From a virus, in the IMG/VR virus record IMGVR_UViG_3300034523_000174, positions 1-64,000 of that record: 64,000 bases of DNA. One strand, written 5' to 3'. The notes beneath the pieces are model-generated. The model ran no database searches and had not been told where the DNA came from. It worked only from the letters and a program-made list of their open reading frames with translations. Positions 1,069-55,641 of this stretch are shown in pieces. The position numbers and the translations under genes were made by a program. Within the stretch, counting starts at the first letter, position 1. Each line of letters starts with the position of its first letter.

Positions 1069-1109
1069 GCAAACCCCCGGCAAAAGCGCGGGTAATCGTC
1101 TGGGAAAAT
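1069..1109 (+). promoter_or_regulatory. putative late promoter (GCAAACC-N28-GAAAAT)
   Basis: One of 13 fixed-spacing copies. Confidence 0.6.
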
Positions 1110-1160
1110 TTGTTCATTCGGAGGCGTAAGGCCTCATGCGATGACAAAGGAAAATGCCCA

Positions 1161-2558
1161 ATGCTTGCCCGTGCTCCCTACCAGTTATTTCTAGGCAACT
1201 GCCTGGATACCCTGCGCAACCTTCCAGACAACTCTGTTGATAGCATCGTTACCGATCCGCCCTATGGGCTTACCAGCGGTAAGAAGGGCGGGAGCGGTAC
1301 CGCATCAGTAAACCTAAAAAGTCCACATGGCCGTTCGCGTATCGGTACAGGGAATGGCGCTGGCGGCTTCATGGGGTTGAAGTGGGATGGCGATGTTCCA
1401 TCCGTGGAGATATGGGCCGAGTGCCTGCGCGTGCTTAAGCCGGGCGGCCACCTGCTGGCGTTTGCCGGTACCCGCACCCAGCACCGCATGGCAGTACGCA
1501 TTGAAGATGCCGGCTTTGAGATTCGCGACATGATTGCGTGGGTCTATGGCTCAGGCTTCCCGAAGTCGATGGACGTGAGCAAGGCCATTGATAAGGCCGC
1601 CGGCGCCGCGCGAGAGCTTACCCGCCCCGGAGTAGATCGCCGTGAGGGTTATGGTGATGACTGGGATAAAGGCGACTCTTCAACCCGTCCTCGCTATGAC
1701 GAGCCCGCTACCGACACCGCCAAGCAGTGGGAAGGCTGGGGTACTGCGCTCAAGCCTGCCCTGGAGCCGATAACCGTGGCTCGCAAGCCATTTGCTTCTA
1801 CTGTGGCAGCCAACGTACTGGCGCATGGCACTGGGGCGCTCAATATTGGCGGCTGTCGGATTGAGGTGAGTGACGCGACCTACGCTCGAAATTGTTCTGG
1901 CGACCGTGGACACTCAGGAACAAGGGGTTCCGATCAGGAAGGGGCTACAAGCCTGCGTTCGGGTGGCGGTTCCGCTGCGGCTGGTCGCTGGCCTGCAAAC
2001 CTTATTCATGATGGTAGCGCTGAGGTAGTGGCGCAGTTCCCTACGTCTGATAGTGCTCGCGCCAATGGCAATCCCAATAACCCAAAGCGCGGCGAAAACC
2101 ACACGGCTACCAGTTACGGGAAAGGCAACGGAAAGGTCACGCATGATTTCCGTGATGCAGGCAGCGCGGCCAGGTTCTTCTACTGCCCTAAGACCAGTCG
2201 CAAGGATCGTAACGAGGGGCTGACAGATCCCGGTCCACAATTCACTCATGGCGCCACCCTGCGCCAGATTGAAAACACCGACGCCAAGAGCAATAACCAT
2301 CCTACGGTTAAGCCTACGGACCTGATGGCCTATTTGCTGCGCCTGGTGACGCCGCCGGGCGGTATCGCGCTCGATCCTTTCATGGGGTCGGGTAGCACTG
2401 GCAAGGCCGCTATGCGCGAAGGCTTTGAGTTCATTGGCTGCGAGCTGGACGAGGGTTATATGGCCATTGCGACAGCGCGTATCGCACATGAGCATTTGAA
2501 GCGGGTAGCGCAAGACAAGTCCCCCGAGAATGCTCAGTGCGAAATGGCCATGGTTTAA
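1161..2558 (+). CDS. DNA methyltransferase, N6-A/N4-C, beta class
   Basis: DPPY motif near the N-terminus; HPTVKP and DPFMGSGSTG SAM motif near the C-terminus; RBS-like AAGGA before ATG 1161. Confidence 0.92.
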   Translation: MLARAPYQLFLGNCLDTLRNLPDNSVDSIVTDPPYGLTSGKKGGSGTASVNLKSPHGRSRIGTGNGAGGFMGLKWDGDVPSVEIWAECLRVLKPGGHLLAFAGTRTQHRMAVRIEDAGFEIRDMIAWVYGSGFPKSMDVSKAIDKAAGAARELTRPGVDRREGYGDDWDKGDSSTRPRYDEPATDTAKQWEGWGTALKPALEPITVARKPFASTVAANVLAHGTGALNIGGCRIEVSDATYARNCSGDRGHSGTRGSDQEGATSLRSGGGSAAAGRWPANLIHDGSAEVVAQFPTSDSARANGNPNNPKRGENHTATSYGKGNGKVTHDFRDAGSAARFFYCPKTSRKDRNEGLTDPGPQFTHGATLRQIENTDAKSNNHPTVKPTDLMAYLLRLVTPPGGIALDPFMGSGSTGKAAMREGFEFIGCELDEGYMAIATARIAHEHLKRVAQDKSPENAQCEMAMV

Positions 2559-2563
2559 CTGGC

Positions 2564-3112
2564 ATGTCGAAGCGCTGGATAAGCGAAGAGCAGTTGAAAC
2601 AGCTCCCCCCGGCGATGACCAAGCGGGCGCTGAGCGCCGTGCCGTCTGGTGTTCCGGGCGCGGTGGCGGCAAAGAAAGCCCCGGCCAAGGCCGCGAGCAA
2701 TGCCGCCCAGGTACCGCCGCCGGTGGTGGTGCCTACTGCGTCACGGCCGAGCGCGAAAGAGCGCATGCAGGCCAAGGGGCGCTTGCCGAAGGGCGTAATG
2801 AACGCCACCGAAACCCGGTACGCGGCGCACCTGGACGAGTTGAAGCTGGCCGGGGATGTCGTGTGGTGGCGTTTCGAACCGGTGAGGCTGCTACTGGCCA
2901 AGCTCACCACGCTGACGCCTGATTTCATGGTGCAGTTGGCTGACGGTACGGTTGAGCTGCACGACGTGAAGGGGGCGAAAGCCATCTATGAGGATGATGC
3001 CAAGGTCAAAATGAAGGTGGCCGCCAAGGAATACCCGTTTGTGTTCCGCGTGGTGTTTCCCAAGGCCAAGAAGGATGGAGGTGGTTGGATCATTGAAGAG
3101 GTTGGCGCTTGA
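2564..3112 (+). CDS. PD-(D/E)XK nuclease-like protein (DUF1064-like)
   Basis: E..Y...TPDF...ELHDVKG motif. Confidence 0.75.
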   Translation: MSKRWISEEQLKQLPPAMTKRALSAVPSGVPGAVAAKKAPAKAASNAAQVPPPVVVPTASRPSAKERMQAKGRLPKGVMNATETRYAAHLDELKLAGDVVWWRFEPVRLLLAKLTTLTPDFMVQLADGTVELHDVKGAKAIYEDDAKVKMKVAAKEYPFVFRVVFPKAKKDGGGWIIEEVGA

Positions 3113-3387
3113 GCGAGCCACTGCCGGCGGTGGTGGTGAACGCCCATGAAAGGTACGTTAGCCATATCATGTTTTGTGCAGATTGTTATGCACCGAAAAA
3201 GCGCCATTGTCTTACAGGGTTGAGCCTTCGAATCGAGTACGACGCTCAGTTTTTGATGACAATTAGCGATCTTCGCTGGCGCCGAACTCTGTTATTGCGT
3301 GAAGGCGATCAGAACCCGGCAAACGCAGACGGGCTCAAGGCTCGCGTGATTGAGCTGTACAACGAAGGTTTAGAAAAAGCGCAATAG
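3109..3387 (+). CDS. hypothetical protein with H..CxxC..C motif
   Basis: TTGA overlap with the upstream stop. Confidence 0.6.
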   Translation: MSEPLPAVVVNAHERYVSHIMFCADCYAPKKRHCLTGLSLRIEYDAQFLMTISDLRWRRTLLLREGDQNPANADGLKARVIELYNEGLEKAQ

Positions 3388-3435
3388 GTTGTCAATTTCG
3401 CCACGTCCACAGCGAAATGCTTGCGCCTTTTTGGC

Positions 3436-3464
3436 TTGCCAAATGTATAGGGATACTTTCTAAT
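3436..3464 (+). promoter_or_regulatory. sigma70-like promoter with operator ATGTATAGGGAT (3443-3454) in the spacer
   Basis: TTGCCA-N17-TCTAAT; the 12-mer recurs exactly at 12048, 62385 (-) and 63004. Confidence 0.6.
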
Positions 3465-3499
3465 CGCCGCGTTGAGACGTGCCGGGGAGGGTGCTTTAG

Positions 3500-4252
3500 A
3501 TGGTCGGGGATAAAACAACCGCTGCGAATGCGACAGAGGCAGAAGGGGCGTCGGGCGATATCCGAAGCGCTGAGCTTTCGTTGTTTAGCGAGTCGGAAGA
3601 CTTGGGGGTTGGCGCTGGCTCAAATGAGCGCCGACGTGCCGAGGAAACCCGCCTAATGGGCATCGTCGGACGGAAGCTGCGCCGGGCACGCAAAGCGGCC
3701 GGATTGAGTGAGAGCGCTGCCGGTTTGGCGCTGGCTCAGGAAGGCGTGACGATGATCAGCCTTTACGAGAACGGTCACCGACTGCCGAGCTTGGCAAACC
3801 TGCGCCTGCTGGCTCAATTGTACGGCGTGACGACTGATTACCTCCTTGATATGCACGACGACATTCTGGCCGAGCCAGAAGAGGGCAATCAGGCTGTACT
3901 CAGGGGCATTATCAGTGCCTCCCTAATGGGCCAGTTCGGCCAGTTCGTAGATGGGATTTCACGCCGCAACGCCATCATGATCGAGGCTCTAAGCCTGGAT
4001 CGCGCTCTGCTGTCCAACCTGGCCGGTGTCGCCACGGATCTGGTCAGCGCTCTAAACGTCGTCAAAACCCACGCCCCCGAGTTCGAAGAGATTCGCGGTG
4101 GTGCAAAGCTCGTCCGTTTGGTGGGCGAACTGCATGGGAGTATGTCCGAACAGATACGCCGCCGAGCGCGAGAGGAAGCAATGGCCGACTACGAGCCGTT
4201 CTGTCCCGCGCCGGAGCAGATTGCAAAGCAGGTGCAACAGCTTTTGTTTTGA
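3500..4252 (+). CDS. XRE-family HTH regulator with C-terminal extension (candidate late activator)
   Basis: LRRARKAAGLS...ISLYENG.R.PSL..L..LAQLYGVTTDYLL; lies upstream of the small terminase gene. Confidence 0.8.
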   Translation: MVGDKTTAANATEAEGASGDIRSAELSLFSESEDLGVGAGSNERRRAEETRLMGIVGRKLRRARKAAGLSESAAGLALAQEGVTMISLYENGHRLPSLANLRLLAQLYGVTTDYLLDMHDDILAEPEEGNQAVLRGIISASLMGQFGQFVDGISRRNAIMIEALSLDRALLSNLAGVATDLVSALNVVKTHAPEFEEIRGGAKLVRLVGELHGSMSEQIRRRAREEAMADYEPFCPAPEQIAKQVQQLLF

Positions 4253-4299
4253 TTTGTGCTGCTGGAGAGGAAGGCGCGTATAGCCGTCGTGGCGCCTTT

Positions 4300-4803
4300 T
4301 GGAGTGAACCAGTTAGTCAACGGCGGTCGCAGCACCCCGCGCTCCCTGCCACCTCCGGCAGGTCGCGGGTTTTTACAGGGTTACGCATAACCGGAGCGCT
4401 TTGGATTAGAGCGCTGCGGTATGCAGTAGGCCGAAAGGCGGCAAGCATGGCCAGGGCGTTCCTCCTGGTTGTAGTGGCGCCAGTAATGCGGGTTGACCAT
4501 GCGCCTAAGCGCGTTACCTGCTGCATTTCAAATTAGCGCCCTGTGCGCGGATAGCTTGGCCTCCTTAAGGGGCTGATTCAAAGCGTGATGCGGTCGCTCG
4601 TTGTGGTGGTCTGGTGGGATGTCTCTACCAGGCTAAGGCGCTCTTAGACAGTGCGCTGCAACACCCCAGCATGGATAACCGACAGGAGAAAGGTTTACTG
4701 CCTTTGCGGCGCCGGTCAGTAGCGTTCCGTTGACTGATAGTGGTGGGGGTCAGTACCAGGACCAACGCCCACAAGAGTAGCCCGCCCTGCGGGCTATTTT
4801 TTT
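4300..4803 (+). ncRNA. candidate large structured non-coding RNA (family unknown)
   Basis: No credible ORF; about 10 nested helices with + strand G.U pairs; closing helix 4312-4323/4727-4738; GAAA tetraloop; ends in an intrinsic terminator. Confidence 0.55.
4778..4803 (+). terminator. intrinsic terminator
   Basis: TAGCCCGC-CCT-GCGGGCTA followed by a T run. Confidence 0.8.
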
Positions 4804-4873
4804 ACCGTGAGGCGCAAGAAGTTGGCCGCGTTGCCACGGTTGATAGCGAACTTATTACGCATGAGGTGTTGGG

Positions 4874-5947
4874 ATGCCGCGCAAGCCAGATACTGAAAAA
4901 CCAGCCGTGTCGGGGGATGATTTATCCCCGTCCTCGGCTAACGCGCGCGCTCGTAAACCTGCAAAACCGCGTGCGGTTAATGTTAACAAGGCCGTGCCGA
5001 GCAAAAAACCGGCCAAAAAGCCTGTAAAAAAAGCCGCCAAAGCCCCTGCAAAACCGGTCACGCCGAAGAAGGCGAACCGGCACGGTGGCTGTGGAACGAC
5101 AAAGATAGAGAACCCAGTGAAGCTAACGCTGAAAGAGCGTAAAGCCATGGAAATGGCGGCTTTCCAGGGGCTTGATGCCAGGCAGGCGAAGTTCGTCGAC
5201 CTGTGGTTGGTGACGTATGACCAGCGCCAGTCTTACCGTGACGCCGGGTTCAAGTGCGCCAACGATAACGCAGCCTCAGCAGCGGCCAGTCGTCTGTTAA
5301 GTAAGGTTAAGTCACACCCATATACGCTGGCTCGCCAAGTCGAGCTGTTTGCCCGCACGGCAGATGTTCAAAACCAGCTCATAGCGACCTATCACGCGGC
5401 GTCGTTTGCCGATCCGCGCGAGCTGGTTGAGTACGTGCGCCGGTGTTGCCGCTACTGCTACGGCATCGACCATAAGTTCCAGCTGCGCCCCAGTGAAATG
5501 GAACGGCGCCGGGCGCAGTACGAAATGGATAAAGCCGCCGCCGAGGAAGAGAACAAGACCATTGGCGAGTTCGATGAGCTTGGCGGTGTGGGCTACGACG
5601 GCAAGAAGCCTCCCCACTCCGATTGCCCTGAGTGCGACGGTGAAGGCGAAGGCCGCGCGCTATTCAAAGACACTAGCAATCTGTCTCCTGCTGCCCTGGC
5701 GCTCTATGAGGGTGTGAAGGAGGGCAAGGACGGTACCGAGCTTAAAGTGGCCAGCCAGAAAGGCTATCGCGACGGTTTGGCAAGGTTGTTCAACATGAAC
5801 GTGGAGCCGGCTGTAGTGGTGAATCAGGGGGTCACGGAAGAGAGGCTTGAGGAAATCCTGGCCATCGCTGAGGCGAACACTCAGAAAAATCGCGAGGCTA
5901 TGGCCGCACGAATGGAAGAGCTGGCCAAGATAGGAATCGTCAATTGA
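4874..5947 (+). CDS. terminase small subunit (PacA-like) with Zn finger and K/P/A-rich N-terminus
   Basis: Q..FV..W...Y..AG......ASRLL HTH; DPRELVEY.R.CCRYC...CPECDGEG as seen in phage TerS. Confidence 0.8.
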   Translation: MPRKPDTEKPAVSGDDLSPSSANARARKPAKPRAVNVNKAVPSKKPAKKPVKKAAKAPAKPVTPKKANRHGGCGTTKIENPVKLTLKERKAMEMAAFQGLDARQAKFVDLWLVTYDQRQSYRDAGFKCANDNAASAAASRLLSKVKSHPYTLARQVELFARTADVQNQLIATYHAASFADPRELVEYVRRCCRYCYGIDHKFQLRPSEMERRRAQYEMDKAAAEEENKTIGEFDELGGVGYDGKKPPHSDCPECDGEGEGRALFKDTSNLSPAALALYEGVKEGKDGTELKVASQKGYRDGLARLFNMNVEPAVVVNQGVTEERLEEILAIAEANTQKNREAMAARMEELAKIGIVN

Positions 5948-6225
5948 AACCGGCCGGGCCAACCGCTTCACAGGTTATGCAAGCACGCCGCACTACTGGC
6001 CTGAGTCAGCGCGCAAGCGCGGCGCTGATTCATGTCAGCCGGAGAGCCTGGCAGACCTACGAAGACGGCACAGTGACGATGAAACTCGGCTTGTGGGAGC
6101 TGTACCAGTTCAAGACCGGACAAATTTGGGGAAGTCTGCCGCCCTTGAAGGGTGGGAAACAGGCTACATCGCGCCAGGGTAGGCCAGAAAACTTAACGCC
6201 ATTCAAGGCAAAGTCACAGGAGTAG
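5944..6225 (+). CDS. small XRE HTH protein
   Basis: ARRTTGLSQRASAALIHVSRRAWQTYEDG. Confidence 0.7.
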   Translation: MKPAGPTASQVMQARRTTGLSQRASAALIHVSRRAWQTYEDGTVTMKLGLWELYQFKTGQIWGSLPPLKGGKQATSRQGRPENLTPFKAKSQE

Positions 6226-6231
6226 GAATAC

Positions 6232-6867
6232 ATGCAGCAAGCACAACAATCTATCGCTGTTGAGCGTCGTTCCCCGGTTGCGGCACTAGGCGCCCCCATC
6301 GTGAACGATACCGGTCTGTTGAATGCCGAGCAGATCCCGGCCTTTCGCGCGTACCTGGTGGAAAGCGGCCTGCAAGTCCGTGATTCGGGCGCGGGTCAGT
6401 TCTTTCATGTCCGCTTGCCCGAGCTGGCGCGCTGGCTGCCGATTGAGCGTGGTCGTGCTGGTGCGCCGGTAACGCCGGATGTGCTGCGCCCATTTATTGC
6501 CAGTTTCCTCAAGTTGCCGTTGGCCACCGCTATTGGCGAAGTTCGGGCCGCCCGTCATGCGGCTGAGCGCAATGTGGCTCGTGCGGCGCTTGCACAGCCT
6601 GTTGTTGTCGAGGTCGCTACCGATCCTATGACACAGTTTCAGGAGCAAGCCACGGCGCCCGCTGGTGCCGCGATGGATTGCCTTGATCCGGTCGAACGCA
6701 AGACGCCGGCACCGCTGTCGCGCTACCTCAGCGATCTGCGCGACGACCTGGCCCTGCATGCGCCTGTCCGCTGGGATCCGGAACTGAGTGCTGAGGCGAA
6801 CGCTATTCGCCGCTGGGAATACGCGGACGTGATGCTGGCCACACGCACCACCAAGGCCGGGGATTAA
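6232..6867 (+). CDS. hypothetical protein
   Basis: RBS AGGA; operon context. Confidence 0.7.
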   Translation: MQQAQQSIAVERRSPVAALGAPIVNDTGLLNAEQIPAFRAYLVESGLQVRDSGAGQFFHVRLPELARWLPIERGRAGAPVTPDVLRPFIASFLKLPLATAIGEVRAARHAAERNVARAALAQPVVVEVATDPMTQFQEQATAPAGAAMDCLDPVERKTPAPLSRYLSDLRDDLALHAPVRWDPELSAEANAIRRWEYADVMLATRTTKAGD

Positions 6868-6886
6868 CCGGGAGAGTACAAACCCT

Positions 6887-7057
6887 ATGGTTTGCCGTTA
6901 TTGCGACGGGGATCGGGTTGTGTGGCGCAAAGGCGCGCACGGCCCCTTCACCCTCTGCCAGGACTGCAAACGTCGGAACTGTGAGCGGGGCACAAGCGCC
7001 CTGCCTCACGGGCACCACGAATGCGTCCGCGCCCAACTTCAACTGAAAATGCTGTGA
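6887..7057 (+). CDS. 56-aa Zn-ribbon protein (not in ORF track)
   Basis: MVCRYCDGDRVVWRKGAHGPFTLCQDCKRRNC...; GGAG upstream; fills the intergenic gap. Confidence 0.6.
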   Translation: MVCRYCDGDRVVWRKGAHGPFTLCQDCKRRNCERGTSALPHGHHECVRAQLQLKML

Positions 7058-7064
7058 GTCACAT

Positions 7065-7520
7065 ATGAGCCAGCCACAGAAAGCCCCAGCCCCCACCGAT
7101 TTGAAACGCTCAGCGCGCCTGATGCGGTTGAAGCACGCCAACGCGGTGTTGGTGGAGATATCGAAGGTCGGAAACCACACATGGGCGAACGAAGCGGGGG
7201 ATGTGTGCCGCCTGCGCCTCACCGTTGACGGTCGCGTGCATTTCCGCGACCACGACCCGGAAACGCCGACCATCGACCTGCACAGCACCGCCAAGGGCGC
7301 TAATGGCTTCTGGCTGGGGTTTCCCTATAAGGGCTCCGAGGCGTTGGTGCTGCGCGGCCTGCGTGACTACGTTGCGCACGGGACCAAGATTCACCGCACG
7401 TTGCTGGTGCCGCTGGTAAACGGCCGCCTGGCGCGTGGGTACACGGATGCTGATGTGGCGCTGATCGAGGATCGGTTGAAGTTCGTGCCGATCTTTGTTG
7501 AGCCGGATGTGCGCCGGTGA
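7065..7520 (+). CDS. hypothetical phage protein
   Basis: Operon context; GTGA coupling to the downstream gene. Confidence 0.7.
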   Translation: MSQPQKAPAPTDLKRSARLMRLKHANAVLVEISKVGNHTWANEAGDVCRLRLTVDGRVHFRDHDPETPTIDLHSTAKGANGFWLGFPYKGSEALVLRGLRDYVAHGTKIHRTLLVPLVNGRLARGYTDADVALIEDRLKFVPIFVEPDVRR

Positions 7521-7708
7521 GGCCACTGATAGTGGTGAATCGCGGCACTGGCGAGCGCTTGCTGGTCGAATTGGAAATTGGTTCGCTGCTTTGGCTGCGC
7601 AGTGAGAGCGGCGACATTGAGCAGGCCAGCCGTGAGCACCTGCCAGCCGAACGATGGGCATTTATGGAAGCTGGGGGTACGCATGTCGATCTTTCTGAAT
7701 CGCGCTGA
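7517..7708 (+). CDS. hypothetical protein
   Basis: Overlapping start/stop coupling. Confidence 0.5.
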   Translation: MRPLIVVNRGTGERLLVELEIGSLLWLRSESGDIEQASREHLPAERWAFMEAGGTHVDLSESR

Positions 7709-8270
7709 TTTTGAGTATGCCGCGAGCCAGGCCGGGATAACGGATCTGGAGCGCGACGGCGAGGATTACGCCAACGCCAACACACAAATGGCGTATGCCG
7801 TATGGCTGAGCGTGGCATTCCCCCTTGGTGAGAATGGTTCGGCCCCGTTGGCGTGGGTAAACCGTCGCGGTGGCAAGGCGGTTGGGCTTGTTCTGGCGCG
7901 ACCTACAGGGCCGGAGTCGCCTCAGTGGGCCAAGCGTGTCGCCCAAGGCTGGCAATCATCTATGCCGATGTACGCCAACGTGCCAGGGGTGAGCCATGAG
8001 GTGATGTCTGTCGTGCTTGAGCACCAGCGCCAGCGCCAGGAAGAGGGCTATTCGATACAGAGCGACCTGGAGCAATACCAAGGGGGCGAGCTGGCGCGTG
8101 CGGCGGCGTGCTACGCGATGCAGGCGGGCGGCGTGTACCCAATGCGCTACGTCAGCTTCTGGCCCTTCAAGTCGAAAATCAAATCCTGCCCACCGGCTGA
8201 ATCGCTGGCCAAGGCTGGCGCGCTGATCTTTGCCGAGCTTGAGCGTGCAAAGGCGCAAAGCCACCAATAA
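7683..8270 (+). CDS. conserved phage hypothetical protein
   Basis: C-terminal E..RQ...EGY....D..Y..GELARAAACYA...WP...L.KAGALI.AELER domain, common in phages. Confidence 0.75.
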   Translation: MSIFLNRADFEYAASQAGITDLERDGEDYANANTQMAYAVWLSVAFPLGENGSAPLAWVNRRGGKAVGLVLARPTGPESPQWAKRVAQGWQSSMPMYANVPGVSHEVMSVVLEHQRQRQEEGYSIQSDLEQYQGGELARAAACYAMQAGGVYPMRYVSFWPFKSKIKSCPPAESLAKAGALIFAELERAKAQSHQ

Positions 8271-8295
8271 GCGCCAGAAAATCAAGCAGTAAGGT
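8255..8295 (+). promoter_or_regulatory. putative late promoter (GCAAAGC-N28-TAAGGT)
   Basis: Fixed-spacing motif upstream of the large terminase. Confidence 0.6.
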
Positions 8296-8338
8296 GTAAG
8301 GGCCGGTAATTCGGCCCTTTTTGCGTTTAAGGGATTGC

Positions 8339-9907: not shown

Positions 9908-9976
9908 AACAACGTTTTGATAATGTCTATTCCGCTGATATGCTGGCGCCTGCCCCACATATACGGAATAAAACTT

Positions 9977-46606: not shown

Positions 46607-46628
46607 GTTCGAAACGCGCGAAAACCAT

Positions 46629-46669: not shown

Positions 46670-46722
46670 CATTTCTGAAACTAATCGGGCGCAGCCCACC
46701 ATTATCAGAAATGAGGTAACAC

Positions 46723-48408
46723 ATGCCTACGAACATTTACGCGCCCGGATCCGGCTTGGGTGAGGTTGCTGCCAAGGTTGGTGCATTGGTCGGTGCTGCG
46801 CGCGGCAACGACAACATGCTCGACAGTCTCAGCGCTCCAGCCATGGATGCCGTGAAACTCGCCGTAGCAGACGCCAAAAACCTGCTGCCTGAGCGTATGG
46901 CTCGCCTGCTGGACAAGATCGAGGGCGAGGGCAGTCGCGCGTTGGCCGTTACCAGTATGCTGGACGGTATCGCCAGCTTTCAACGCAAGTGTGGTTTCTC
47001 CCCGTCCGCCGACATGATCGACGCGGTAATCTCCCAGGCGGAAAACCTGGCAGACGGCAAAGCTACCGACGTGCTGCCGCACGGAACCACCCTGGACAGC
47101 ATCAGTACCAACAATGCCTCGGCCACCCTGTCGCACCAGCCTAACCGCATCGCGGTAGCTATCACTGGCGGCCTGAGCGAGGCGATCCCGTTCGGCGCCT
47201 ACCTGCCATCCGACCTCAGTTCTAACGAGTCGAAGCTGGCCATCATCACCTCGATTGCCGGTTCGAACTTTGGCGCGTACAAGTCGGGCGAAATCATCGA
47301 CGGCACTTCCGGCGGCCGCGAATACACCCGCTCCGAACGTGTTGTGGACGTTACTGTTGACGTAGCACGTACCGGTGGCACTTTCGCCATCAAAACCCAG
47401 TCGGATGGTGGCGGCGCTACCGTTCCATTGCTGCGTGGTCGTACCTCGATCACCGCCAACGGCTTCCCGGTTGCTTTCGAGCAAACCAACAACTCCGGTA
47501 CAGACAGCTCGCTGATTTCTGGCCAGTTCAAGCAGGGCGCACAGTCTTACGTCATTACCGGTAGCGTCAACGTCGCCACCGGCGCCGGCACCCTGACCTT
47601 TGCCCCAGCCCTGGCCGCTGATATTGATATCGAAGCGCAAGGCTTCATCGACTTCGAAAGCAAGCCTGAGCTGGCGCCAAATATCGGCACCATCGCACAG
47701 AGCTACAGCCTGTACTGTGCACCGTCTCGCCTGATCATGCAGGCCACCCCGGATTCGCGCAGCCAGTCCCAGTCGGAATTGGGCGCCGACCGCCTGACCA
47801 TCGCTGTGCAGGCCGCTCGCACCCAGCTGGCGAACGAGCGTTACATCGCCGCGCTGCATAAGGTCCGCAAGCTGGCCAAAAACACCAGTCGCGAATACGA
47901 CTTTAACGCTGCTGAGCAACTGACGCTGAAAACTCGTGCGGACGCCCTGCGCGACCTGGGCTCGTTCGTGTCGGCTGTTGACCAGGACGTGGCCAACCAG
48001 ACCATGGAATACGGCCTGAGCTTCATGTACGTCGGTTCTAAGGGCATGTCCCAGTTCCTGACCATGGACGCCTCGGACTTCACCCCGTCCGGCCTCCAGT
48101 CGAAGCCAGGTATCTGGCGCATCGGCCGCTACAAGAACAAGTACGACGTGTACTACACCCCGTATGTCGTCCAGGAAACCGACACCGATATCGAAATCCT
48201 GTGCATCGGTCGCTCCCCGCAAGTGGCGCGTAACCCGATTGTCTTCTCGGATGCGGTATCCCCGACCCTGATCCCGCTGGCGGTGAACTCGGATCTGAAA
48301 ACCGGCGCGGCGCTGTTCTCCCGCCAGCTGACCGAAGTGAACCCGCACAAGCCGTCGTCGTTGGGCTGCGCGCTGCTCACCATCAAAAACGTGTACGCAC
48401 TGGGCTAA
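46723..48408 (+). CDS. major capsid protein precursor (P1 gp23-like)
   Basis: 561 aa; strongly biased codons; upstream of the sheath gene; N-terminal propeptide-like region. Confidence 0.85.
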   Translation: MPTNIYAPGSGLGEVAAKVGALVGAARGNDNMLDSLSAPAMDAVKLAVADAKNLLPERMARLLDKIEGEGSRALAVTSMLDGIASFQRKCGFSPSADMIDAVISQAENLADGKATDVLPHGTTLDSISTNNASATLSHQPNRIAVAITGGLSEAIPFGAYLPSDLSSNESKLAIITSIAGSNFGAYKSGEIIDGTSGGREYTRSERVVDVTVDVARTGGTFAIKTQSDGGGATVPLLRGRTSITANGFPVAFEQTNNSGTDSSLISGQFKQGAQSYVITGSVNVATGAGTLTFAPALAADIDIEAQGFIDFESKPELAPNIGTIAQSYSLYCAPSRLIMQATPDSRSQSQSELGADRLTIAVQAARTQLANERYIAALHKVRKLAKNTSREYDFNAAEQLTLKTRADALRDLGSFVSAVDQDVANQTMEYGLSFMYVGSKGMSQFLTMDASDFTPSGLQSKPGIWRIGRYKNKYDVYYTPYVVQETDTDIEILCIGRSPQVARNPIVFSDAVSPTLIPLAVNSDLKTGAALFSRQLTEVNPHKPSSLGCALLTIKNVYALG

Positions 48409-48420
48409 CAGGGGGCTGTC

Positions 48421-49038
48421 ATGGCTGCGAAGACTGGCGTTAAAGCGGCGGTGAAAACCGCTGCTGCTAAAACCGCAGCGGCCCCCAAGACCCCGGAAAC
48501 CGTGGAGAAATCCACGGCCCTTCCGGGCGTTGGTGCGCCTGCTGATAACACCGTCCCACCAGGTGGCGAAAGCGAGACGGCCAAGGCCGAGCGCGAAGCT
48601 GCGGAAAAGCTCATGGACGAACTGCGCGAAGAGGCCGAGCGCCTGAATCGGGAGTGGGACGACAGCGCCGCGCGCTTGCTGGCCGAGCAAATGGGCCTGC
48701 TGGAAGACGAAGCCCGCGCGGAGGATTTGGAGCGCGCCGAGCGCCTGAAAACCACGCAAACCACCCCCGAAGAGGGCGCCGCCGGTGCCGTAACTTTGAT
48801 CGGGTGGGCGCTTCCAGAAATCAGCGAGTTTCCGGCCACTGTCACCCTCGAAAACCACACTCGCAACCGCGTCCCGGTGGCCGGCGCGAACATCGGCCTG
48901 GCCCCATATGAGCGGGTTGAAGTCACGGTTTCACAGGAGCAGTTCGCCAAGCTCGCCAAAGCGCTGACCAGCAGTGCGCGGGCGCACAAGTGGGACAACC
49001 TCAAAGGCTTGCAGGTGAAATATGACCGTAAAAATTGA
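48421..49038 (+). CDS. virion-associated protein (paralog of 49022..49348)
   Basis: Low-complexity N-terminus; C-terminal domain aligns with the next gene. Confidence 0.7.
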   Translation: MAAKTGVKAAVKTAAAKTAAAPKTPETVEKSTALPGVGAPADNTVPPGGESETAKAEREAAEKLMDELREEAERLNREWDDSAARLLAEQMGLLEDEARAEDLERAERLKTTQTTPEEGAAGAVTLIGWALPEISEFPATVTLENHTRNRVPVAGANIGLAPYERVEVTVSQEQFAKLAKALTSSARAHKWDNLKGLQVKYDRKN

Positions 49039-49348
49039 TCGACAGGCTGGTAAAGCCCCGCGCCCACTCGTTGAGGCGTTGGTGGCAGGCCAGCAGTATC
49101 CGTTCCTGGCGTCGTTGACGCACATGAACAAAAAACCGGTGGTGGTCCCGTCCTCGGGCATCAATACCCCAATTGCACCAGGTGAGCCGGTTCAAGTGAA
49201 GGTTAAGAGCTTCGACCAGGCTTGGCTGTTGGTCACGGACCTGGCTGAGCTGGCGCACCGCGCTGGCAATGACGCCGCCGATTTTGCGGTGTTGGCAGCC
49301 CCCAAGGTCGCCAAGGCCAAGGCCGTCGAAGCCCAGGAGGCTAAGTAA
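49022..49348 (+). CDS. virion-associated protein
   Basis: Between capsid and sheath genes. Confidence 0.7.
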   Translation: MTVKIDRQAGKAPRPLVEALVAGQQYPFLASLTHMNKKPVVVPSSGINTPIAPGEPVQVKVKSFDQAWLLVTDLAELAHRAGNDAADFAVLAAPKVAKAKAVEAQEAK

Positions 49349-50994
49349 TGACTATCCCTTTTTCCCGCTCCATTGATAAGCGTTCGGGCGTACAGCTCAA
49401 CTACATCAATGACATGTCGGAAATGCCGAGCACCAGCACCGTGGCGCACAACATGGCCATTACTGGTCGTTTTGCCCGTGGTCGCACGGACAAGGTGTTT
49501 GCGGTTTCTCGCGACAAGATCAAGCGCGTGCTGGGTTCTGCTCAGTCGTTGTCGGTAAGTGCACTGGGTGAGCCCTATGTGCATATCTATGAAGCGCTCA
49601 AGAAGGGCACCGTTCAGGCCATCGTTTCCCGCCTGGTCAGCGCCGACGCCACCAACAAGCTGATGGTTGCCACGGCCGCTGTTGCCCCCGCAGAAGGTCA
49701 GCCGGCGCCACCGGTCTGGACGCTGGTGGACGAAGCCACGGGCGCCACCGGTACCTACCTGATCGCCATCAAGCATTTGGAATGCTTCTCCGACGGCGTT
49801 AAGGCCGAGATTCACGCCGACGCCGCAACGGACGCCGAGGGCGAGCCTGTCGCGTCCAAAATCATCACCCTGCAACTGCGCGACGTGGCTACCAACGCCA
49901 TCGTCCTCGGGCCTTACAAGGGCTCGCTTGATCCGGCGGCGCTCGATGAGTTCGGCCAGAGCAATTACATTGCCGATATCGTGGCGCAGTACACCGACCT
50001 GCTTCAGGTCGTCGACGTACATGCAGACGCAGAGGTACCAGTCGCGTGCGTGTTTTACGGCAAGAAGGACAATAAGGATGTCTATGCATCGGCAGCCCTG
50101 AATTACTTCACCGAAGGCTCTACGCTGTACACCACCGAGGATCTGGACGCCGCGATTGACCGTATCAAGCGTTCTAAGCCGACTTTTACTTACATCGGCG
50201 GTGGCGGTACCGAAAGCCTGGCGCTGATTTCTCGCCTGTTGGACCTGGGCAAGCAGATCAACAAGCAAGTGGTTTGGGACATTGCTGGTCGCTTCACTCC
50301 AGAAGCCGCCGCGACCTTCTACGCTTCGGTTGGCGGTGCGACTGACAGCCTGTACAGCCAGTGCTATTGGGCGCCGATCACGGCCACCAACCCGGTGGTA
50401 GGCGGTAAGGCCTATATGGGCACCTCGGGCATGAACATCGGCCTGCGCTGCGCTCGCAACGCACAGACCAACGCCAAGGGTATCGCCCCGCGCAACGTTG
50501 TGATTGCTGGTAGTGACTTCGCCGTCGACCGTACCAGCATGGTGCAAACCTATGAGCCGTCGGATGACGAACTGGAAGTGCTTGCCGCCAGCCGGATCAA
50601 CCCGGTTATCTACAAGGACTACGCCAGCGGCGGCAAATACGCCTGGCTCGATTCCTTGACCGGCGCGCAAACCGAAGGCGCTACCAAGCTGATCGCAGTT
50701 GTTGAAATGGCAACTTACGTCGACGACACCATTGCCTCGGCGGCTCAGGAAGCTTTGCAGAAGCCTATGGCCAAGGCCATCGAGAAAACCACGAAGTTCA
50801 TCGCCACCTTCCTGGAATCGCTGCAATCGGCTAACTGGCTGCAACCAAGCGAAGCCCTCGACGGTGCCTGCTACCAGGCCACCATCCAGGCGAACGCCAA
50901 CCAGCCTTTCGAGAAAATGAACATCGATACGGCCATCTGCTACGACGGTACGGCTCGCATCATCGTTCAGCAGCAGTCTATCGTCCGCACTTAA
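49348..50994 (+). CDS. tail sheath protein (P1 gp22-like)
   Basis: G.F.RG....F, RINPV and D.LT motifs; 548 aa. Confidence 0.88.
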   Translation: MTIPFSRSIDKRSGVQLNYINDMSEMPSTSTVAHNMAITGRFARGRTDKVFAVSRDKIKRVLGSAQSLSVSALGEPYVHIYEALKKGTVQAIVSRLVSADATNKLMVATAAVAPAEGQPAPPVWTLVDEATGATGTYLIAIKHLECFSDGVKAEIHADAATDAEGEPVASKIITLQLRDVATNAIVLGPYKGSLDPAALDEFGQSNYIADIVAQYTDLLQVVDVHADAEVPVACVFYGKKDNKDVYASAALNYFTEGSTLYTTEDLDAAIDRIKRSKPTFTYIGGGGTESLALISRLLDLGKQINKQVVWDIAGRFTPEAAATFYASVGGATDSLYSQCYWAPITATNPVVGGKAYMGTSGMNIGLRCARNAQTNAKGIAPRNVVIAGSDFAVDRTSMVQTYEPSDDELEVLAASRINPVIYKDYASGGKYAWLDSLTGAQTEGATKLIAVVEMATYVDDTIASAAQEALQKPMAKAIEKTTKFIATFLESLQSANWLQPSEALDGACYQATIQANANQPFEKMNIDTAICYDGTARIIVQQQSIVRT

Positions 50995-51004
50995 GGGGTA
51001 TCAC

Positions 51005-51733
51005 ATGGAAAAGTTACTGCAAAACGTACTCGCCACTGGCGCCGCGATCAGCAAGGCCTACGCGAGCCCGGCACCGGAATCTCAGGCGCCAAACCTGGCG
51101 CTGTCGGGCCTCTCCGCTGCCATGCTCGACGCGCTCAATCCGGACAATGCGCCCGCTGCGCTGTTCACTGACGAAATGCGCCAAGAAGCGGTAAGCATCG
51201 TCCAGGAGTGGGCTGAGTCGGAGCTGGAAACCGGCGAAGGCTATGGTGATCGTCTTTACGCACTGATCGTTGGCAGCGCCACCGATGGCGATGAAGACAT
51301 GAGCGATGACGAAGCGGAATACGCCGCCTCCTTGGCTGAGCTGGTGGGCGACTACCTGGAAGGCAAGGGCATCGACGCCGGCGACGTGGAATCGCTGCTG
51401 AGCGATGATCCGTCGTTTGACAATGACGTGGCCGCACGCATTCACGATGCGCTGCTGGACAAGCTCCCACAGGGCGAGGACGCCATGCTCGATGACGCTG
51501 ACAAGTTCGTCAGCGGTGACGACGACGAAATGCTCGATGCGGTCTACAAAAAGGTCGTGGCTATTCGTGGCGGCAAGAAGGTTCGCATCAAGAAGCGCAT
51601 CAGTGGCCGCGTGCGGCTGACAGCAGCGCAGAAAGGTGCGGTGCGCAAAATGCAGCGCAAAGCCTTCTCGGGTGCGGCGAAAATGAAGCGCGCCAAGTCC
51701 ATGCGCTTGCGCCACCGCCTGCTCGGTAAGTAA
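51005..51733 (+). CDS. bipartite acidic/basic head-core or scaffold-like protein
   Basis: Acidic body with MLD motifs; 64-aa K/R-rich tail. Confidence 0.7.
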   Translation: MEKLLQNVLATGAAISKAYASPAPESQAPNLALSGLSAAMLDALNPDNAPAALFTDEMRQEAVSIVQEWAESELETGEGYGDRLYALIVGSATDGDEDMSDDEAEYAASLAELVGDYLEGKGIDAGDVESLLSDDPSFDNDVAARIHDALLDKLPQGEDAMLDDADKFVSGDDDEMLDAVYKKVVAIRGGKKVRIKKRISGRVRLTAAQKGAVRKMQRKAFSGAAKMKRAKSMRLRHRLLGK

Positions 51734-51736
51734 AAC

Positions 51737-52918
51737 ATGGCTGACTTTAGCGTAGACAGCCTGGGTAAAACCGTCTCTTCCAGCATCAAGGGTGTTACCG
51801 GGACGGTGGCCGGGAGTACGTCGAACAAGCTGCTAGGGTCAGCCACCAAATTCCTGGGGAACGGCGCCGCTGGCGCCGCTTCCGGCATCCTTACGGCCGG
51901 GGTGTCACAGATTGACGGCCTGGTGGGCGGTACCGCCAACCGTAAGGCGATAGAGGGCGCAGTAAGCACCGTCACCGGCACGGTGTCGGATCTGTGGTCA
52001 GGCAAAACGACGATTGGCCAGGTATACGACGACGCCTCAAGCAAAGTCATGGGCTTGGTCGATGGCGTCAAGTCGGGCGACCTTGAGGGGACTGTCGGCA
52101 ACATTATCGGCGGTACCAGCTTGGCCATACCGGGCTTAACGTCGCTCAGCTCTGACCTGGGTGGCGACTGGGGCAGTCTTTCGCCCCTTTTCTTGGCCCG
52201 TATATTCGTGTGTGACGCCAAGGGCGTGGCTGACATTCAGGAGTTTGCTGGGGTGTATGGGGCGCTCAAAGAGGGCTCGCTTGAAATCCAGCAAAACTGG
52301 CAATCCCCGTTTGAGAACACCGGCCCGGAAACTAAGGCGCCAGCGCTGGCCGGCATGCTGCAATCGGGTTCGCTGGTGCCGGTCCTTAATGCGCTGCAAG
52401 CCATTTCACCGTTCAAAGAAGGTGCGATATCCGACACGCTCAATGCCGGCTCTGACAAGCTCAAGAGCATCATGCGCGACCTTGAGGGGCGCACCGGGAT
52501 AACCAAGCTCAACTCCCGCCAAGTTTTCTCGGGCATGCCACCGGTAAAGATCAACCTCACGCTGCACTTTCGGGCGATGAGCGATCCGTTGAAAGAGGTG
52601 GAGGCGCCGTTAACGCGATTGCTTGAGTGGATTTTCCCGCAAGAGCTGGCGGCCGACGGGATCCTTTCGGAGGTACTGCAAACCACTCAGGACGTGGATT
52701 CATTCATCAAGGCGCTGTTTCCGTCCAAGGCACCCAAACTACTGGGATTCACCTACGCGGGGCGGACCTTCTCCCCCATGGTGATCGAGAGCGTCAATTT
52801 TCCCTTGGATTCACCGAAGAATTCACAGGGCTATTACATCGACCTGCCAGTACAGGTGTCCATGGCCACGCTTACCGCGCTCGACCGGCCGGATATCAAG
52901 CGTTTCTTTGGTCGATAA
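51737..52918 (+). CDS. baseplate/tail-tube initiator-like protein
   Basis: NWQSPFE, NSRQVFSG.PP, PMVIESV..PLD.P; late operon. Confidence 0.6.
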   Translation: MADFSVDSLGKTVSSSIKGVTGTVAGSTSNKLLGSATKFLGNGAAGAASGILTAGVSQIDGLVGGTANRKAIEGAVSTVTGTVSDLWSGKTTIGQVYDDASSKVMGLVDGVKSGDLEGTVGNIIGGTSLAIPGLTSLSSDLGGDWGSLSPLFLARIFVCDAKGVADIQEFAGVYGALKEGSLEIQQNWQSPFENTGPETKAPALAGMLQSGSLVPVLNALQAISPFKEGAISDTLNAGSDKLKSIMRDLEGRTGITKLNSRQVFSGMPPVKINLTLHFRAMSDPLKEVEAPLTRLLEWIFPQELAADGILSEVLQTTQDVDSFIKALFPSKAPKLLGFTYAGRTFSPMVIESVNFPLDSPKNSQGYYIDLPVQVSMATLTALDRPDIKRFFGR

Positions 52919-52933
52919 CAGGCCGCAAACCCT

Positions 52934-52974
52934 GCAAACCCCGCCCCGAAGCGGGGTTTTTTACGTGTGACGAT
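52934..52974 (+). promoter_or_regulatory. putative late promoter/terminator (GCAAACC-N28-GACGAT)
   Basis: Motif plus hairpin AAACCCCGC/GCGGGGTTT with T run. Confidence 0.7.
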
Positions 52975-53008
52975 TGCCCGGAGTGTTCCATTCTCCAGAG
53001 GGTGATTT

Positions 53009-53482
53009 ATGACCGTTTCCAGTTTGGCGGTATTGAGCCGCACGTTTCAAAACACCAACGATATCGGGGCCAAGGCTGTCCAGGCGGACGCCACCATGGT
53101 GATCGAAGGTTTCGAAGACATGATGTTGCTGTGCAAGCAATTCCCATGGGGCGTGGCGACCTCGGGCGGGGTGGTTGAATACTTCGGCCCGCTGGGTCAG
53201 AAGATGGGTCAGCCGGGGCAAGTCAAGACCATGCAGGAAGGCCCGATTCAGATTTACGAAACCCGCAAAAACCACGCGGGCGAGTTCCTGAAAAACCTGA
53301 TCGCCGCCGGTGGCGAATTCAACTGCACCGTCTACGCCGGCCGCCCGGATGATTACACCAAAAAAGAAGACTACAAAAAGTGCATGTTGGTGATGGACAC
53401 CCCAGATCGTGACTGGGAGAACGACATGCAGACGTTCGTGCTCGCCGGCACCATGACCTTCCACTGGTTCGGCAACCAGTAA
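53009..53482 (+). CDS. tail tube protein
   Basis: 157 aa; own late promoter; tube-like size and beta-rich pattern. Confidence 0.65.
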   Translation: MTVSSLAVLSRTFQNTNDIGAKAVQADATMVIEGFEDMMLLCKQFPWGVATSGGVVEYFGPLGQKMGQPGQVKTMQEGPIQIYETRKNHAGEFLKNLIAAGGEFNCTVYAGRPDDYTKKEDYKKCMLVMDTPDRDWENDMQTFVLAGTMTFHWFGNQ

Positions 53483-53484
53483 TC

Positions 53485-53889
53485 ATGAAAATCAGCCAAT
53501 TAGTTGACCAGTACCTTGCTGAGCTACCGATTGGCTGTGTGCTGACGGAAGAGCAAATAGCCCGCCATCTGCGCGATGCAGTGCGCCAGTATTGCGGGTA
53601 TGCCCGTCTGACCAGCGCTCAGTCACTAGACACTGTGCACAGCGACCTCTATACGCCCGAAGACGTGCCGGCGCCGGTAGACGTTGATCTGACGCACAGT
53701 GAGCTGGCGATCATCCGCCCCTTATGGCTGCTCTACATCGAGCACGAAAACGCCATGGCCCTGGAAGCCTCCAGAAGCCAGGGCGCGGATCCTTATGGCC
53801 GGTCTACGCCCGAGGTCAAGCAATCAATCCTCGACTATGAGCGCAGCCTTCCACAACTGACATTTGTGTTTGAAGTGAGGTCGATTTAA
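53485..53889 (+). CDS. head-tail adaptor-like protein
   Basis: A...YCGY...I.PL..LY.E.ENA..LEASR; late operon. Confidence 0.5.
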   Translation: MKISQLVDQYLAELPIGCVLTEEQIARHLRDAVRQYCGYARLTSAQSLDTVHSDLYTPEDVPAPVDVDLTHSELAIIRPLWLLYIEHENAMALEASRSQGADPYGRSTPEVKQSILDYERSLPQLTFVFEVRSI

Positions 53890-54602
53890 TGGCCAACATC
53901 TTCGAGCGGCTGGCCTATCAAGGCGTGGAAAAGGCGGCGGGCAGCGTCCAAAAAGGGCTGCCTAACGCAGTCCTAAAATACACCAGCGCCGCCCGCAACC
54001 TGCTCGGCGGCAATTTGAGTGGCGCAGCCAACGGGGTTCTGGATAACGTCTTTGGTCGTACCAGCATGTTTTCCGCCGGCGGCAACGTCATTTTGGCGGG
54101 GCAGTCCTGGAACAGCATTCTGGAGAGTTTCGAAGAGGCGTCGAGCGTTCTTCGTGAGCGCACGAACCTGTGGCATGTCGCTGTCGATCCGGTGGGCAAA
54201 ATCAGCGCGCCGCGCATCAACCTGCTTTCCACCGAAGTCTCCTATAACAGCGTCCAGCTGGGCTACGAGCCGGTAAAGATCGGCTCAGGGTTTACGCAAG
54301 CCCCCACTGGCGCCGATCCGGTAGAGCTGCGAATCGTCTGCTACGACGTGGATGGCGAGATAAAAGCGTGGTTCGACCAGCTTAAGGCTACCGCCACGCC
54401 TCGGGATGGCTCCTTTGCCGTGCCATCGGACTACGCCAACACCATCACCGTCACCCACGGCTCAATCGAAGAGAGCCGCGGCTACTCCGCAAAGTGGGTA
54501 ATGGTCCCCGTGTCCTGCGAGGTCAGCCTGTCACGCAGCACTGACGAGTTCACCGCGCTCAATCTCACATTCACGCAGCACGATTCCTTTGGTGCCCTAT
54601 GA
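53889..54602 (+). CDS. tube-like baseplate protein
   Basis: Tube-fold-like C-terminal half; coupled start. Confidence 0.55.
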   Translation: MANIFERLAYQGVEKAAGSVQKGLPNAVLKYTSAARNLLGGNLSGAANGVLDNVFGRTSMFSAGGNVILAGQSWNSILESFEEASSVLRERTNLWHVAVDPVGKISAPRINLLSTEVSYNSVQLGYEPVKIGSGFTQAPTGADPVELRIVCYDVDGEIKAWFDQLKATATPRDGSFAVPSDYANTITVTHGSIEESRGYSAKWVMVPVSCEVSLSRSTDEFTALNLTFTQHDSFGAL

Positions 54603-55369
54603 AGTACATCAACCCGATCAACACTCGCCGTATTTCCGTGGAAATGAGCGAACTGCTCATTGAGGACGTGGAAAAGCTGTGTGAGATACCCGCGATTTAT
54701 GAGCAGCGCACAGTGAGCGAGCTGCTACGTCGAATCTGCAAGCCGATAGATCGCCCTGGTGCGGTAGCGGATCCGCGCTTTTGGTCAGTTAACGAGCGCA
54801 TTTTTGTGGTGGCCAGCTACATGGCTGCTACCCGCGATGATGGCCCGGACTTCCCTGTGGGCGAGAAAGGTAGCGGAGCCCACTTTAGCGACTACCTGCT
54901 GGCCAACACGGACTATGCCAGTGATATCCCGTTCAGCTTTGAAGGTGAGGCGCTGCTATTCAGTCCGTTGCTGGGCTACCAGGCTGAAATTATCGAGGCG
55001 CTGATTGCTGGCGGCACCTACAAGCCCACTGATTTCAGTTGGTGGTGTGGCGCCATGGCTGCGTGTGTACGCGGGGCAAACGATGATCCGTTGGAGTACA
55101 CCGACGACGCCAGCTATGAAACGGCCTTGGTGGGGCGTATCGCGGCTATTCGCCAAATGCCAGAGGCCAAGTTTGTCGGGCTATTCCATGCCTATCTGGA
55201 CGCCACTCAGATGGGTGCGCACCTGGTGCATGCGATTACCAGTTCCCATGGCGTAATTGCCGCCCCTGTCTCCGAGCCGAAAGAAGGAGGGCCAGAGTTA
55301 GCACCTGCCCGATTTCCTGCCCATACCTGTATCAGCTTCGGGGCGCGTCGAGCTATGGGATTCGTATAA
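54599..55369 (+). CDS. tail morphogenesis/assembly chaperone-like protein (PmgB-like)
   Basis: DPR.WSV.ER...Y......PDF; ATGA coupling. Confidence 0.55.
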   Translation: MKYINPINTRRISVEMSELLIEDVEKLCEIPAIYEQRTVSELLRRICKPIDRPGAVADPRFWSVNERIFVVASYMAATRDDGPDFPVGEKGSGAHFSDYLLANTDYASDIPFSFEGEALLFSPLLGYQAEIIEALIAGGTYKPTDFSWWCGAMAACVRGANDDPLEYTDDASYETALVGRIAAIRQMPEAKFVGLFHAYLDATQMGAHLVHAITSSHGVIAAPVSEPKEGGPELAPARFPAHTCISFGARRAMGFV

Positions 55370-55595
55370 CGCGGTACGTGCAGAGCTCGCGCTGTACTTC
55401 GGCCAAGACCTGGTGCAGTGCGGAAAGCTGACCGATACCCGCGTGCGAAAGCTGTTCGACAGTAAGCCTTTCAGCAACTGGAAGACTGGCCGCGAGAACG
55501 AGAACAAAGTCGTCAAGGCTGAGCTTGAGCGCCTGGACGCCATCATCAAGTCACTGGGCAACGTGGCGCAGATCATCGCCAAAAGAGGCGTCTGA
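55302..55595 (+). CDS. overlapping +1-frame ORF, possible frameshift extension of 54599..55369
   Basis: Frame is open 55302-55595 with no RBS-supported ATG; protein-like sequence. Confidence 0.5.
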   Translation, partial: HLPDFLPIPVSASGRVELWDSYNAVRAELALYFGQDLVQCGKLTDTRVRKLFDSKPFSNWKTGRENENKVVKAELERLDAIIKSLGNVAQIIAKRGV

Positions 55596-55600
55596 AACGC

Positions 55601-55641
55601 GCAAACCAGCCACGGAAGGCTGGCACAAAGCCATAGACAAT
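55601..55641 (+). promoter_or_regulatory. putative late promoter (GCAAACC-N28-GACAAT)
   Basis: Motif plus hairpin CCAGCC/GGCTGG; upstream of the lysis genes. Confidence 0.65.

Follow-up and report, generated by a model that had tools for sequence, protein, structure and literature searches.

A two-part element, GCAAASC-N28-NANNNT, stands in 13 copies upstream of the late genes of a virus recorded in IMG/VR as IMGVR_UViG_3300034523_000174. The record is 77,607 bp long, with 127-bp terminal repeats and 58.6% G+C, and its first 64 kb are referred to here as the window. These sites very probably form a class of late promoters. We propose that they are sigma-70-type, activator-dependent promoters in a temperate Pseudomonas phage that encodes an integrase and is distantly P1-like, and that a LytTR-fold protein encoded at 12115–12504 reads the upstream box. 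Taken as a whole, this combination is the best explanation, and we consider it on balance probable. An earlier note on the window had reported 13 GCAAA(C/G)C boxes, and all of them are present where it placed them. A hexamer with A at position 2 (A2) and T at position 6 (T6) starts 35 nt after the G of the box in 13 of 13 sites, in agreement with the hexamers that it listed. Start codons follow 65–94 nt after the G, with plausible ribosome sites, and the genes downstream are indeed late: TerL, baseplate wedge, portal, baseplate, tail fibre, Hdf-like, DarB-like, capsid, tube and lysis genes, together with one methyltransferase gene. The sites are as follows.

1069–1109 (+): candidate late promoter 5′ of the DNA methyltransferase gene (start ~1161); GCAAACC, 28 nt, GAAAAT; found in this genome only among those compared
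8255–8295 (+): candidate late promoter 5′ of the large terminase gene
13317–13357 (+): candidate late promoter 5′ of the baseplate-wedge operon; spacer diverged, box and −10 kept in 6 genomes
15291–15331 (+): candidate late promoter 5′ of the portal gene; in 7/7 genomes
20497–20537 (+): candidate late promoter 5′ of baseplate genes; terminator hairpin in the spacer at 20499–20523 (z −3.3)
23064–23104 (+): candidate late promoter 5′ of the tail-fibre gene; spacer with a weak hairpin and T-run
26235–26275 (+): candidate late promoter 5′ of the gene at 26309 (PHROG family of unknown function); terminator hairpin at 26237–26261
30522–30562 (+): candidate late promoter 5′ of the Hdf-like gene; spacer almost wholly diverged among 5 genomes
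33774–33814 (+): candidate late promoter 5′ of the gene for a 1372-aa DarB-like cargo protein; terminator at 33732–33753, 42 nt upstream
41662–41702 (+): candidate late promoter 5′ of the gene for a 773-aa protein (PHROG families of unknown function; putative virion cargo)
46629–46669 (+): candidate late promoter 5′ of the major capsid gene; terminator hairpin in the spacer at 46631–46655; in 7/7 genomes
52934–52974 (+): candidate late promoter 5′ of the tail-tube gene; terminator hairpin at 52936–52959 (z −2.9)
55601–55641 (+): candidate late promoter 5′ of the lysis cluster (endolysin-like gene at 56213); spacer hairpin without a T-run (z −2.2)

Across the whole 77,607-bp genome, GCAAASC-N28-NANNNT occurs 17 times on the forward strand and once on the reverse strand, and the reversed control pattern gives 1 and 0 matches. 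An A2/T6 hexamer is found at N28 behind 17 of the 41 forward boxes, against 1.75 expected (binomial P = 3e-13); GCAAASC by itself is mildly over-represented (45 observed vs 31 expected). When spacings from 20 to 39 were scanned in this genome and in the six related genomes described below, N28 formed a peak of 10–17 sites, against 0–5 at each other spacing. We also performed a dyad scan of all 6-mers at all offsets from any A2/T6 hexamer, with no motif preset. The best forward hits were CAAACC at offset 34, GCAAAC at offset 35 and CGCAAA at offset 36, and the reverse strand gave nothing comparable. Plain 6-mer enrichment, run on a roughly defined set of intergenic regions, failed to pick out the box, since GCAAAC is frequent in coding DNA as well. 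All sites lie on the gene strand, 5′ of late operons, and together they serve nearly all virion and lysis operons of this phage family. The early region holds none on its gene strand.

The same code is found in six other genomes. Four IMG/VR relatives (G001–G004; capsid 81–86% identical) have 14, 17, 13 and 14 matches on the gene strand, with 0–2 on the opposite strand and 0–1 for the control pattern. Two Pseudomonas plasmid records came to light via the candidate LytTR activator: the 81-kb "plasmid" of P. atacamensis SM1 (NZ_CP070504.1; capsid 68% identical, 11 pattern matches) and pKF715C of P. putida KF715 (NZ_AP015032.1; capsid 65% identical, 10 pattern matches). In both, the 28-nt spacing alone is enriched, and the dyad scan returned GCAAAC/CAAACC among the top hits in the former and in second and third place in the latter. 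The pattern is absent from P1 and from Xanthomonas phage Rb1.

For a footprint alignment, the sites were grouped by orthologous downstream gene. Across the 12 ortholog groups, spacer and upstream flank have drifted, whereas the box and all six bases of the −10 hexamer are retained, most clearly 5′ of the wedge, Hdf and fibre genes. Within-group identity is 0.96 at the first base of the hexamer, which the pattern does not select, ~0.65 in the spacer and ~0.42 in the upstream flank. The orthologous sites tolerate GGAAACC, GGAAAGC, GCAAAGT, GCAAACG and GCAAACT at N28, and one GTAAACC at N29. This places the core closer to GSAAAS. The motif had previously been written as YGCAAASC; a Y precedes the G in 12 of the 13 sites and is missing in one. 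The box is less rigid than this form implies, since orthologous sites of the relatives tolerate changes at the seventh base and at the C in position 2.

Beyond the 13 sites there are four further forward matches, at 48756, 46564, 4103 and 40430, and one or two of the 17 matches are expected by chance. The match at 40430, present in this genome only, is probably of this kind. The other three are listed here.

48756–48796 (+): extra site in a coding region, upstream of the sheath operon; box and −10 in 7/7 genomes, spacer diverged
46564–46604 (+): possible second capsid promoter, 65 nt upstream of the first, in a gene 3′ end; kept in 4 genomes
4103–4143 (+): uncertain site within a helix-turn-helix (HTH) gene, ~770 nt 5′ of the small terminase gene; in close relatives only

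The site at 48756 keeps its box even though the protein of its host gene is 42–44% identical to the P. atacamensis and pKF715C versions. Conservation of the site at 4103 could be explained by coding constraint.

We infer a promoter of three parts: an asymmetric box, G-C/g-A-A-A-S-C; a spacer of exactly 28 nt; and a weak −10 element in which A2 and T6 alone are fixed. Sigma-70 most needs the A at −11 and the T at −7 of the −10 hexamer. The A2 and T6 core is present in all sites, with no TTGACA-like hexamer at 17 bp. The site alignment shows no −35-like hexamer, and a consensus scan of positions 1–20000 found no sigma-70-type −35/−10 pair 16–18 bp apart at the sites. With the hexamer taken as −12 to −7, the box would occupy −47 to −41, centered at −44, and transcription is predicted to start ~47 nt after the G, leaving leaders of 18–47 nt. 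The distance from box center to hexamer center is 34.5 bp, one helical turn beyond a −35 hexamer, so that a box-bound protein would lie on the polymerase-facing side, in a class II position at about −44. The host sigma-70 polymerase alone would presumably not use these promoters, because they have no −35 element and a poor −10, and a box-bound protein may recruit it from this class II-type activator position. The earlier note had described an asymmetric upstream box, no −35 element and a dedicated late-promoter class, which the behavior of the element supports. Its further suggestion that the box replaces the −35 element is right about the missing −35, but the box is better placed one helical turn upstream of that position.

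A tract that the earlier note missed lies at +24 to +27, where A or T occurs in 85–92% of the 13 sites; a run of at least three A or T at these positions is found in 11 of 13 sites, vs 19% of background windows. A weak degenerate copy of the box is detectable 9 nt upstream (z ~3 in three genomes), and no second copy was found 21 nt upstream. The tube promoter at 52934 has a second box 9 nt upstream, at 52925, and the capsid promoter at 46629 has degenerate copies at −9 and −19. At 46540–46640, in the DNA leading up to the capsid promoter, A-tract words (GCAAACC, GAAAACC, CGAAACG, CAAAAAG) recur every ~9–10 nt, which suggests phased A-tracts, i.e., curved DNA, at the promoter of what is presumably the most highly expressed gene.

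Two proteins had been named earlier as possible activators, at 12115–12504 and at 3500–4252. The first has the LytTR DNA-binding fold and is encoded in all seven code-bearing genomes. It is preceded by a second conserved motif.

12115–12504 (+): candidate activator of 129 aa; receiver-less, LytTR fold followed by a C-terminal helix
12048–12059 (+): second conserved motif, ATGTATAGGGAT, 5′ of the LytTR gene; also at 3443–3454 (+), 62385–62396 (−) and 63004–63015 (+)

The Pfam match to LytTR (PF04397) is sub-threshold, at 18.9–19 bits vs a cut-off of 22.6, and profile searches of the LytTR family against PDB sequences returned no LytTR chain; the fold comparison alone showed the relationship. 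The AlphaFold model of the 129-aa protein has a predicted local distance difference test (pLDDT) score of 88. On the basis of this model, the top 10 Foldseek matches in the PDB are all LytTR domains (B. cereus 3d6w, AgrA and ComE; E = 2e-4), and VIA-align gives Z values of 9.5–11.2 over 94–104 residues, against at most 5.4 for unrelated chains, which points to a LytTR fold. The homologues share 70–75% identity in the close relatives and 34–38% in the two plasmid records. None was found in Rb1 or P1; tblastn of the protein against phages gave no match, nor did a profile search of genome contigs with the LytTR alignment.

The LytTR gene never lies behind the box and is preceded by the second motif, ATGTAYRSGGAT, in every genome. 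ATGTATAGGGAT is a strict asymmetric 12-mer that always points at the downstream gene; its targets here are the HTH gene (3500), the LytTR gene, the SSB operon and the rightward early operon. Variants ATGTACGGGGAT and ATGTACGCGGAT are found 5′ of the LytTR gene in the two Pseudomonas plasmid records. The second motif is probably an early promoter or operator class. We propose that the LytTR protein is made from its own ATGTAYRSGGAT promoter/operator, common to other early genes, and that it would then read the box. The core of the second motif, TATAGGGA, resembles T7-type initiation sites; no phage polymerase was found. The gene at 26309 has the GCAAACC promoter in this genome and the ATGTAYRSGGAT motif in the four IMG/VR relatives and the P. 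atacamensis record. Therefore, one gene has swapped promoter class.

The position of the box is compatible with a LytTR reader. LytTR regulators bind 4–11 bp upstream of −35 (PMC6193735). With the hexamer taken as −12 to −7 and the start as predicted, the box ends at −41, 5 bp from the −35 position and within this range. AlgR, a LytTR protein, acts at single 9-bp sites (PMC4787818). We put the probability that the LytTR-fold protein reads the box at nearly even. The full model, in which a receiver-less LytTR protein replaces Lpa as master late activator across these P1-like Pseudomonas phages and their plasmid-filed relatives, working as a single-site class II activator from a GCAAAS box at −44 with a spacer that can house the terminator of the operon before it, making promoter and terminator overlap, is put forward more tentatively still.

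Several observations weigh against this model. The usual LytTR layout of two 9-bp direct repeats 11–13 bp apart is not present, and the box is unlike the AlgR consensus, CCGTTCGTC. The conjugative plasmid pG69 has a distant, truncated LytTR-like gene and no box enrichment. Boxes of this geometry with one mismatch show no enrichment in the present genome (7 forward vs 10 reverse) yet are present at the orthologous sites of the relatives. An assembled RNA contig starts at 46663, 13 nt before the predicted capsid start. The four RNA runs gave patchy contigs whose ends carry no weight as start sites, and this end neither fits nor refutes the prediction. Finally, phages with LytTR proteins of only 34–38% identity have the same box, which a slowly evolving host reader would explain more easily.

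This last point also argues for an alternative in which the sites are late promoters as described but another factor reads the box: a host Pseudomonas protein, the HTH protein of 3500–4252 or an unrecognized small protein. The HTH protein is better conserved (51–62% identical), the canonical LytTR double repeat is missing, and many conserved early proteins have no assigned function. Conversely, palindromes are the usual targets of XRE-type HTH proteins, the type to which this protein belongs, and the box is asymmetric. The protein, named as a candidate activator in the earlier note, looks more like a repressor: it matches PHROG repressor families and has a weak homologue in Rb1, which has no code. 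Among known Pseudomonas factors none was matched to GCAAAS, the AlgR consensus being different, and the LytTR gene is the only other recognizable DNA-binding gene that tracks the code. We regard the HTH protein and a host factor as lesser candidates, and a reader other than the LytTR protein as rather unlikely. The HTH protein was also compared with P1 C1 as a possible relative, and no similarity was found.

The spacer of some promoters carries a further element that the earlier note missed. At 20497, 26235, 46629 and 52934, a GC hairpin of 9–11 bp starts from the AAAC of the box, at box position +2, and is followed by a T-run, giving the shape of an intrinsic terminator. These hairpins account for 4 of the 15 such terminator-like elements on the forward strand, and the relatives retain them with altered loops and stems. 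A GC hairpin plus T-run is thus seen at these four sites, weakly at 23064 and at none of the other eight, and does not define the element. Judged by eye or by score, five hairpins are strong, and four of these have z values of −2 or lower.

Such structures raise the alternative that the unit acts in RNA, with GCAAAC and the hairpin serving as a terminator, antitermination or processing signal and the hexamer being incidental or a pause site. The shared start of the four strong hairpins at box position +2 and their persistence in the relatives despite changes in loop and stem would suit this explanation. However, at 8 of the 13 sites the folding is no better than that of shuffled sequence, yet box, spacing and hexamer are kept, and six terminator-like hairpins at gene ends (4774, 12982, 32606, 37977, 70700 and 75163) have no box. 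The hairpin is thus an optional tenant of the spacer. The exact 28-nt distance and the conservation of the whole hexamer have no RNA-level explanation, and no Rfam family matched in the window, nor did any tRNA. We consider an RNA-level function improbable. The sites resemble intrinsic terminators in that four spacers hold a GC-rich hairpin and T-run, and differ from them in that most are hairpin-free and in that box, spacing and −10 are conserved independently. We rejected the idea that extrusion of the hairpin moves the box to the distance of a −35 element, since ~3 nt would then remain before the −10 and most sites are hairpin-free.

For the late-promoter model, we propose that four promoters may carry a terminator in the spacer because its sequence is otherwise free. 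Terminators housed in this way would divide the late region into separately promoted, insulated operons. A conserved terminator-like hairpin also lies directly after the −10 of the terminase promoter, at 8298–8319, and the predicted terminase start falls within its left arm. Upstream read-through would stop at this hairpin, whereas the new transcript would not contain it in full.

Direct reading of GCAAAC and the hexamer by a phage sigma factor or polymerase, over an unusually long spacer, is as improbable as a function in RNA. The strict two-part geometry, the strict box and the many unassigned phage proteins would be in keeping with it. Conversely, a six-frame search found no Sigma70_r2 match, Pfam and PHROG scans of ~60 proteins found no polymerase-like family, and a spacer of 28–29 nt is unfit for sigma-70-family geometry. 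An A2/T6 hexamer is moreover what host sigma-70 reads. Chance or composition, to which the mild excess of GCAAASC and one or two matches such as 40430 may be ascribed, is already refuted as a general explanation by the counts: the binomial probability, the 17-to-1 strand bias, the single enriched spacing, the recurrence in six other genomes and the de novo recovery by the dyad scan.

The wider genome is that of a phage whose virion module is distantly P1-like. The major capsid protein (46723–48408) shares 26% identity with P1 gp23 and 37% with the capsid protein of Xanthomonas phage Rb1. PHROG matches identify the small terminase (4874), large terminase (8321), baseplate wedge (13387), portal (15363), baseplate (20858), tail fibre (23136), sheath (49348), PmgG-like (51737), tube (53009) and endolysin-like (56213) genes, as well as the Hdf-like (30583) and DarB-like (33839) cargo proteins. 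The phage is temperate, since an integrase gene is present at 57661–58884 (−). Pseudomonas genomes carry homologues of one of its proteins, and megablast of 46000–56000 against a phage collection gave no match.

Two minus-strand genes without a box (28706–29734 and 31761–32243) sit inside the late region, are kept in 7/7 genomes and are possibly expressed from the prophage. A long non-coding stretch, 4300–4873, precedes the small terminase gene and ends in a strong terminator-like hairpin (4774–4800). There is no box directly 5′ of the small terminase gene in this genome; the P. atacamensis record has a box-bearing promoter just 5′ of the orthologue of the gene after small terminase (5944–6225). 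This record and pKF715C are filed as non-mobilizable plasmids. Both carry the late-promoter code along with genes for the complete P1-like virion module and for an integrase homologue, and look like phage genomes or phage-plasmids of this family. For the biology of pKF715C, we found no paper beyond its genome announcement.

To our knowledge, late-gene switches are known for few model phages, and the Lpa system is so far the only one described for P1-like phages. The present analysis defines a probable second, differently built late switch for the P1 lineage. Its promoter code is explicit and highly specific, and late operons of these phages can be annotated with it. Its candidate activator belongs to a domain family for which no control of phage late genes is known; literature searches found no paper on LytTR proteins as phage late activators or on this box. 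If the proposal is true, the LytTR domain would have a new job, and a new family of late switches would stand in place of Lpa in the P1 lineage. Two hosts, P. putida KF715 and P. atacamensis SM1, are cultured, so the idea is directly testable. The promoters with embedded terminators are also compact, and could find use in Pseudomonas as insulated modules for gene expression.

The closest known system by genome type is that of P1, in which Lpa (gp10) activates the late promoters LPmat, LPpro, LPlyz, LPdar, LPs, LPsit and LPpac, among others (PMC10695390). Both systems have many separately promoted late operons, TANNNT-type −10 elements without a −35, and terminator hairpins abutting promoters, for example upstream of LPs. 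In both, the gene of the factor or candidate factor lies behind an early operator or motif: in P1, lpa, ssb, ref and c1 each follow a C1 operator, and here the LytTR, HTH and SSB genes follow the second motif. The promoters themselves are built differently, as the earlier note had stated. We extracted six annotated P1 late promoters from AF234173.1, and these consist of a 9-bp imperfect inverted repeat, 4 nt and TANNNT. The P1 element is thus a AAGTGACTT-type 9-mer (AAGTnACTT type) 4 nt from the −10, at about −22, vs an asymmetric 7-bp box 28 nt away, at about −44, in the present phage. Our sites share no sequence at −22 beyond the A/T tract. At the sequence level, tblastn of P1 Lpa against the whole genome found no homologue (best E 3.2), and no PacA homologue was found in the genome. 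Tested for box type, box position and activator, the sites agree with the Lpa class in none of the three and do not belong to it.

The system fits the promoter pattern of LytTR activators (AgrA P2/P3, ComE, AlgR, HdrR/BrsR) only partly. It shares with them the fold and a site a few base pairs upstream of −35, and the candidate protein is receiver-less like HdrR and BrsR (PMC6193735). Unlike these systems, it has a single strong box with a weak copy 9 nt upstream instead of two 9-bp repeats 12 bp apart, its box sequence differs from the AgrA/ComE/AlgR consensus, and no membrane inhibitor partner is evident.

The middle and late promoters of phage Mu, activated by Mor and C, have a weak −10, no −35 and an activator site near −43.5, and precede several late operons. 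Their sites are dyad-symmetric, in contrast to the asymmetric box described here, and a six-frame search of the genome found no match to the Mor/C family (PF08765) at E ≤ 1; the sites are not of the Mor/C class. By analogy, the logic that the present sites appear to have in common with P1 Lpa, Mu Mor/C and LytTR-type promoters would be that of activator-dependent late promoters.

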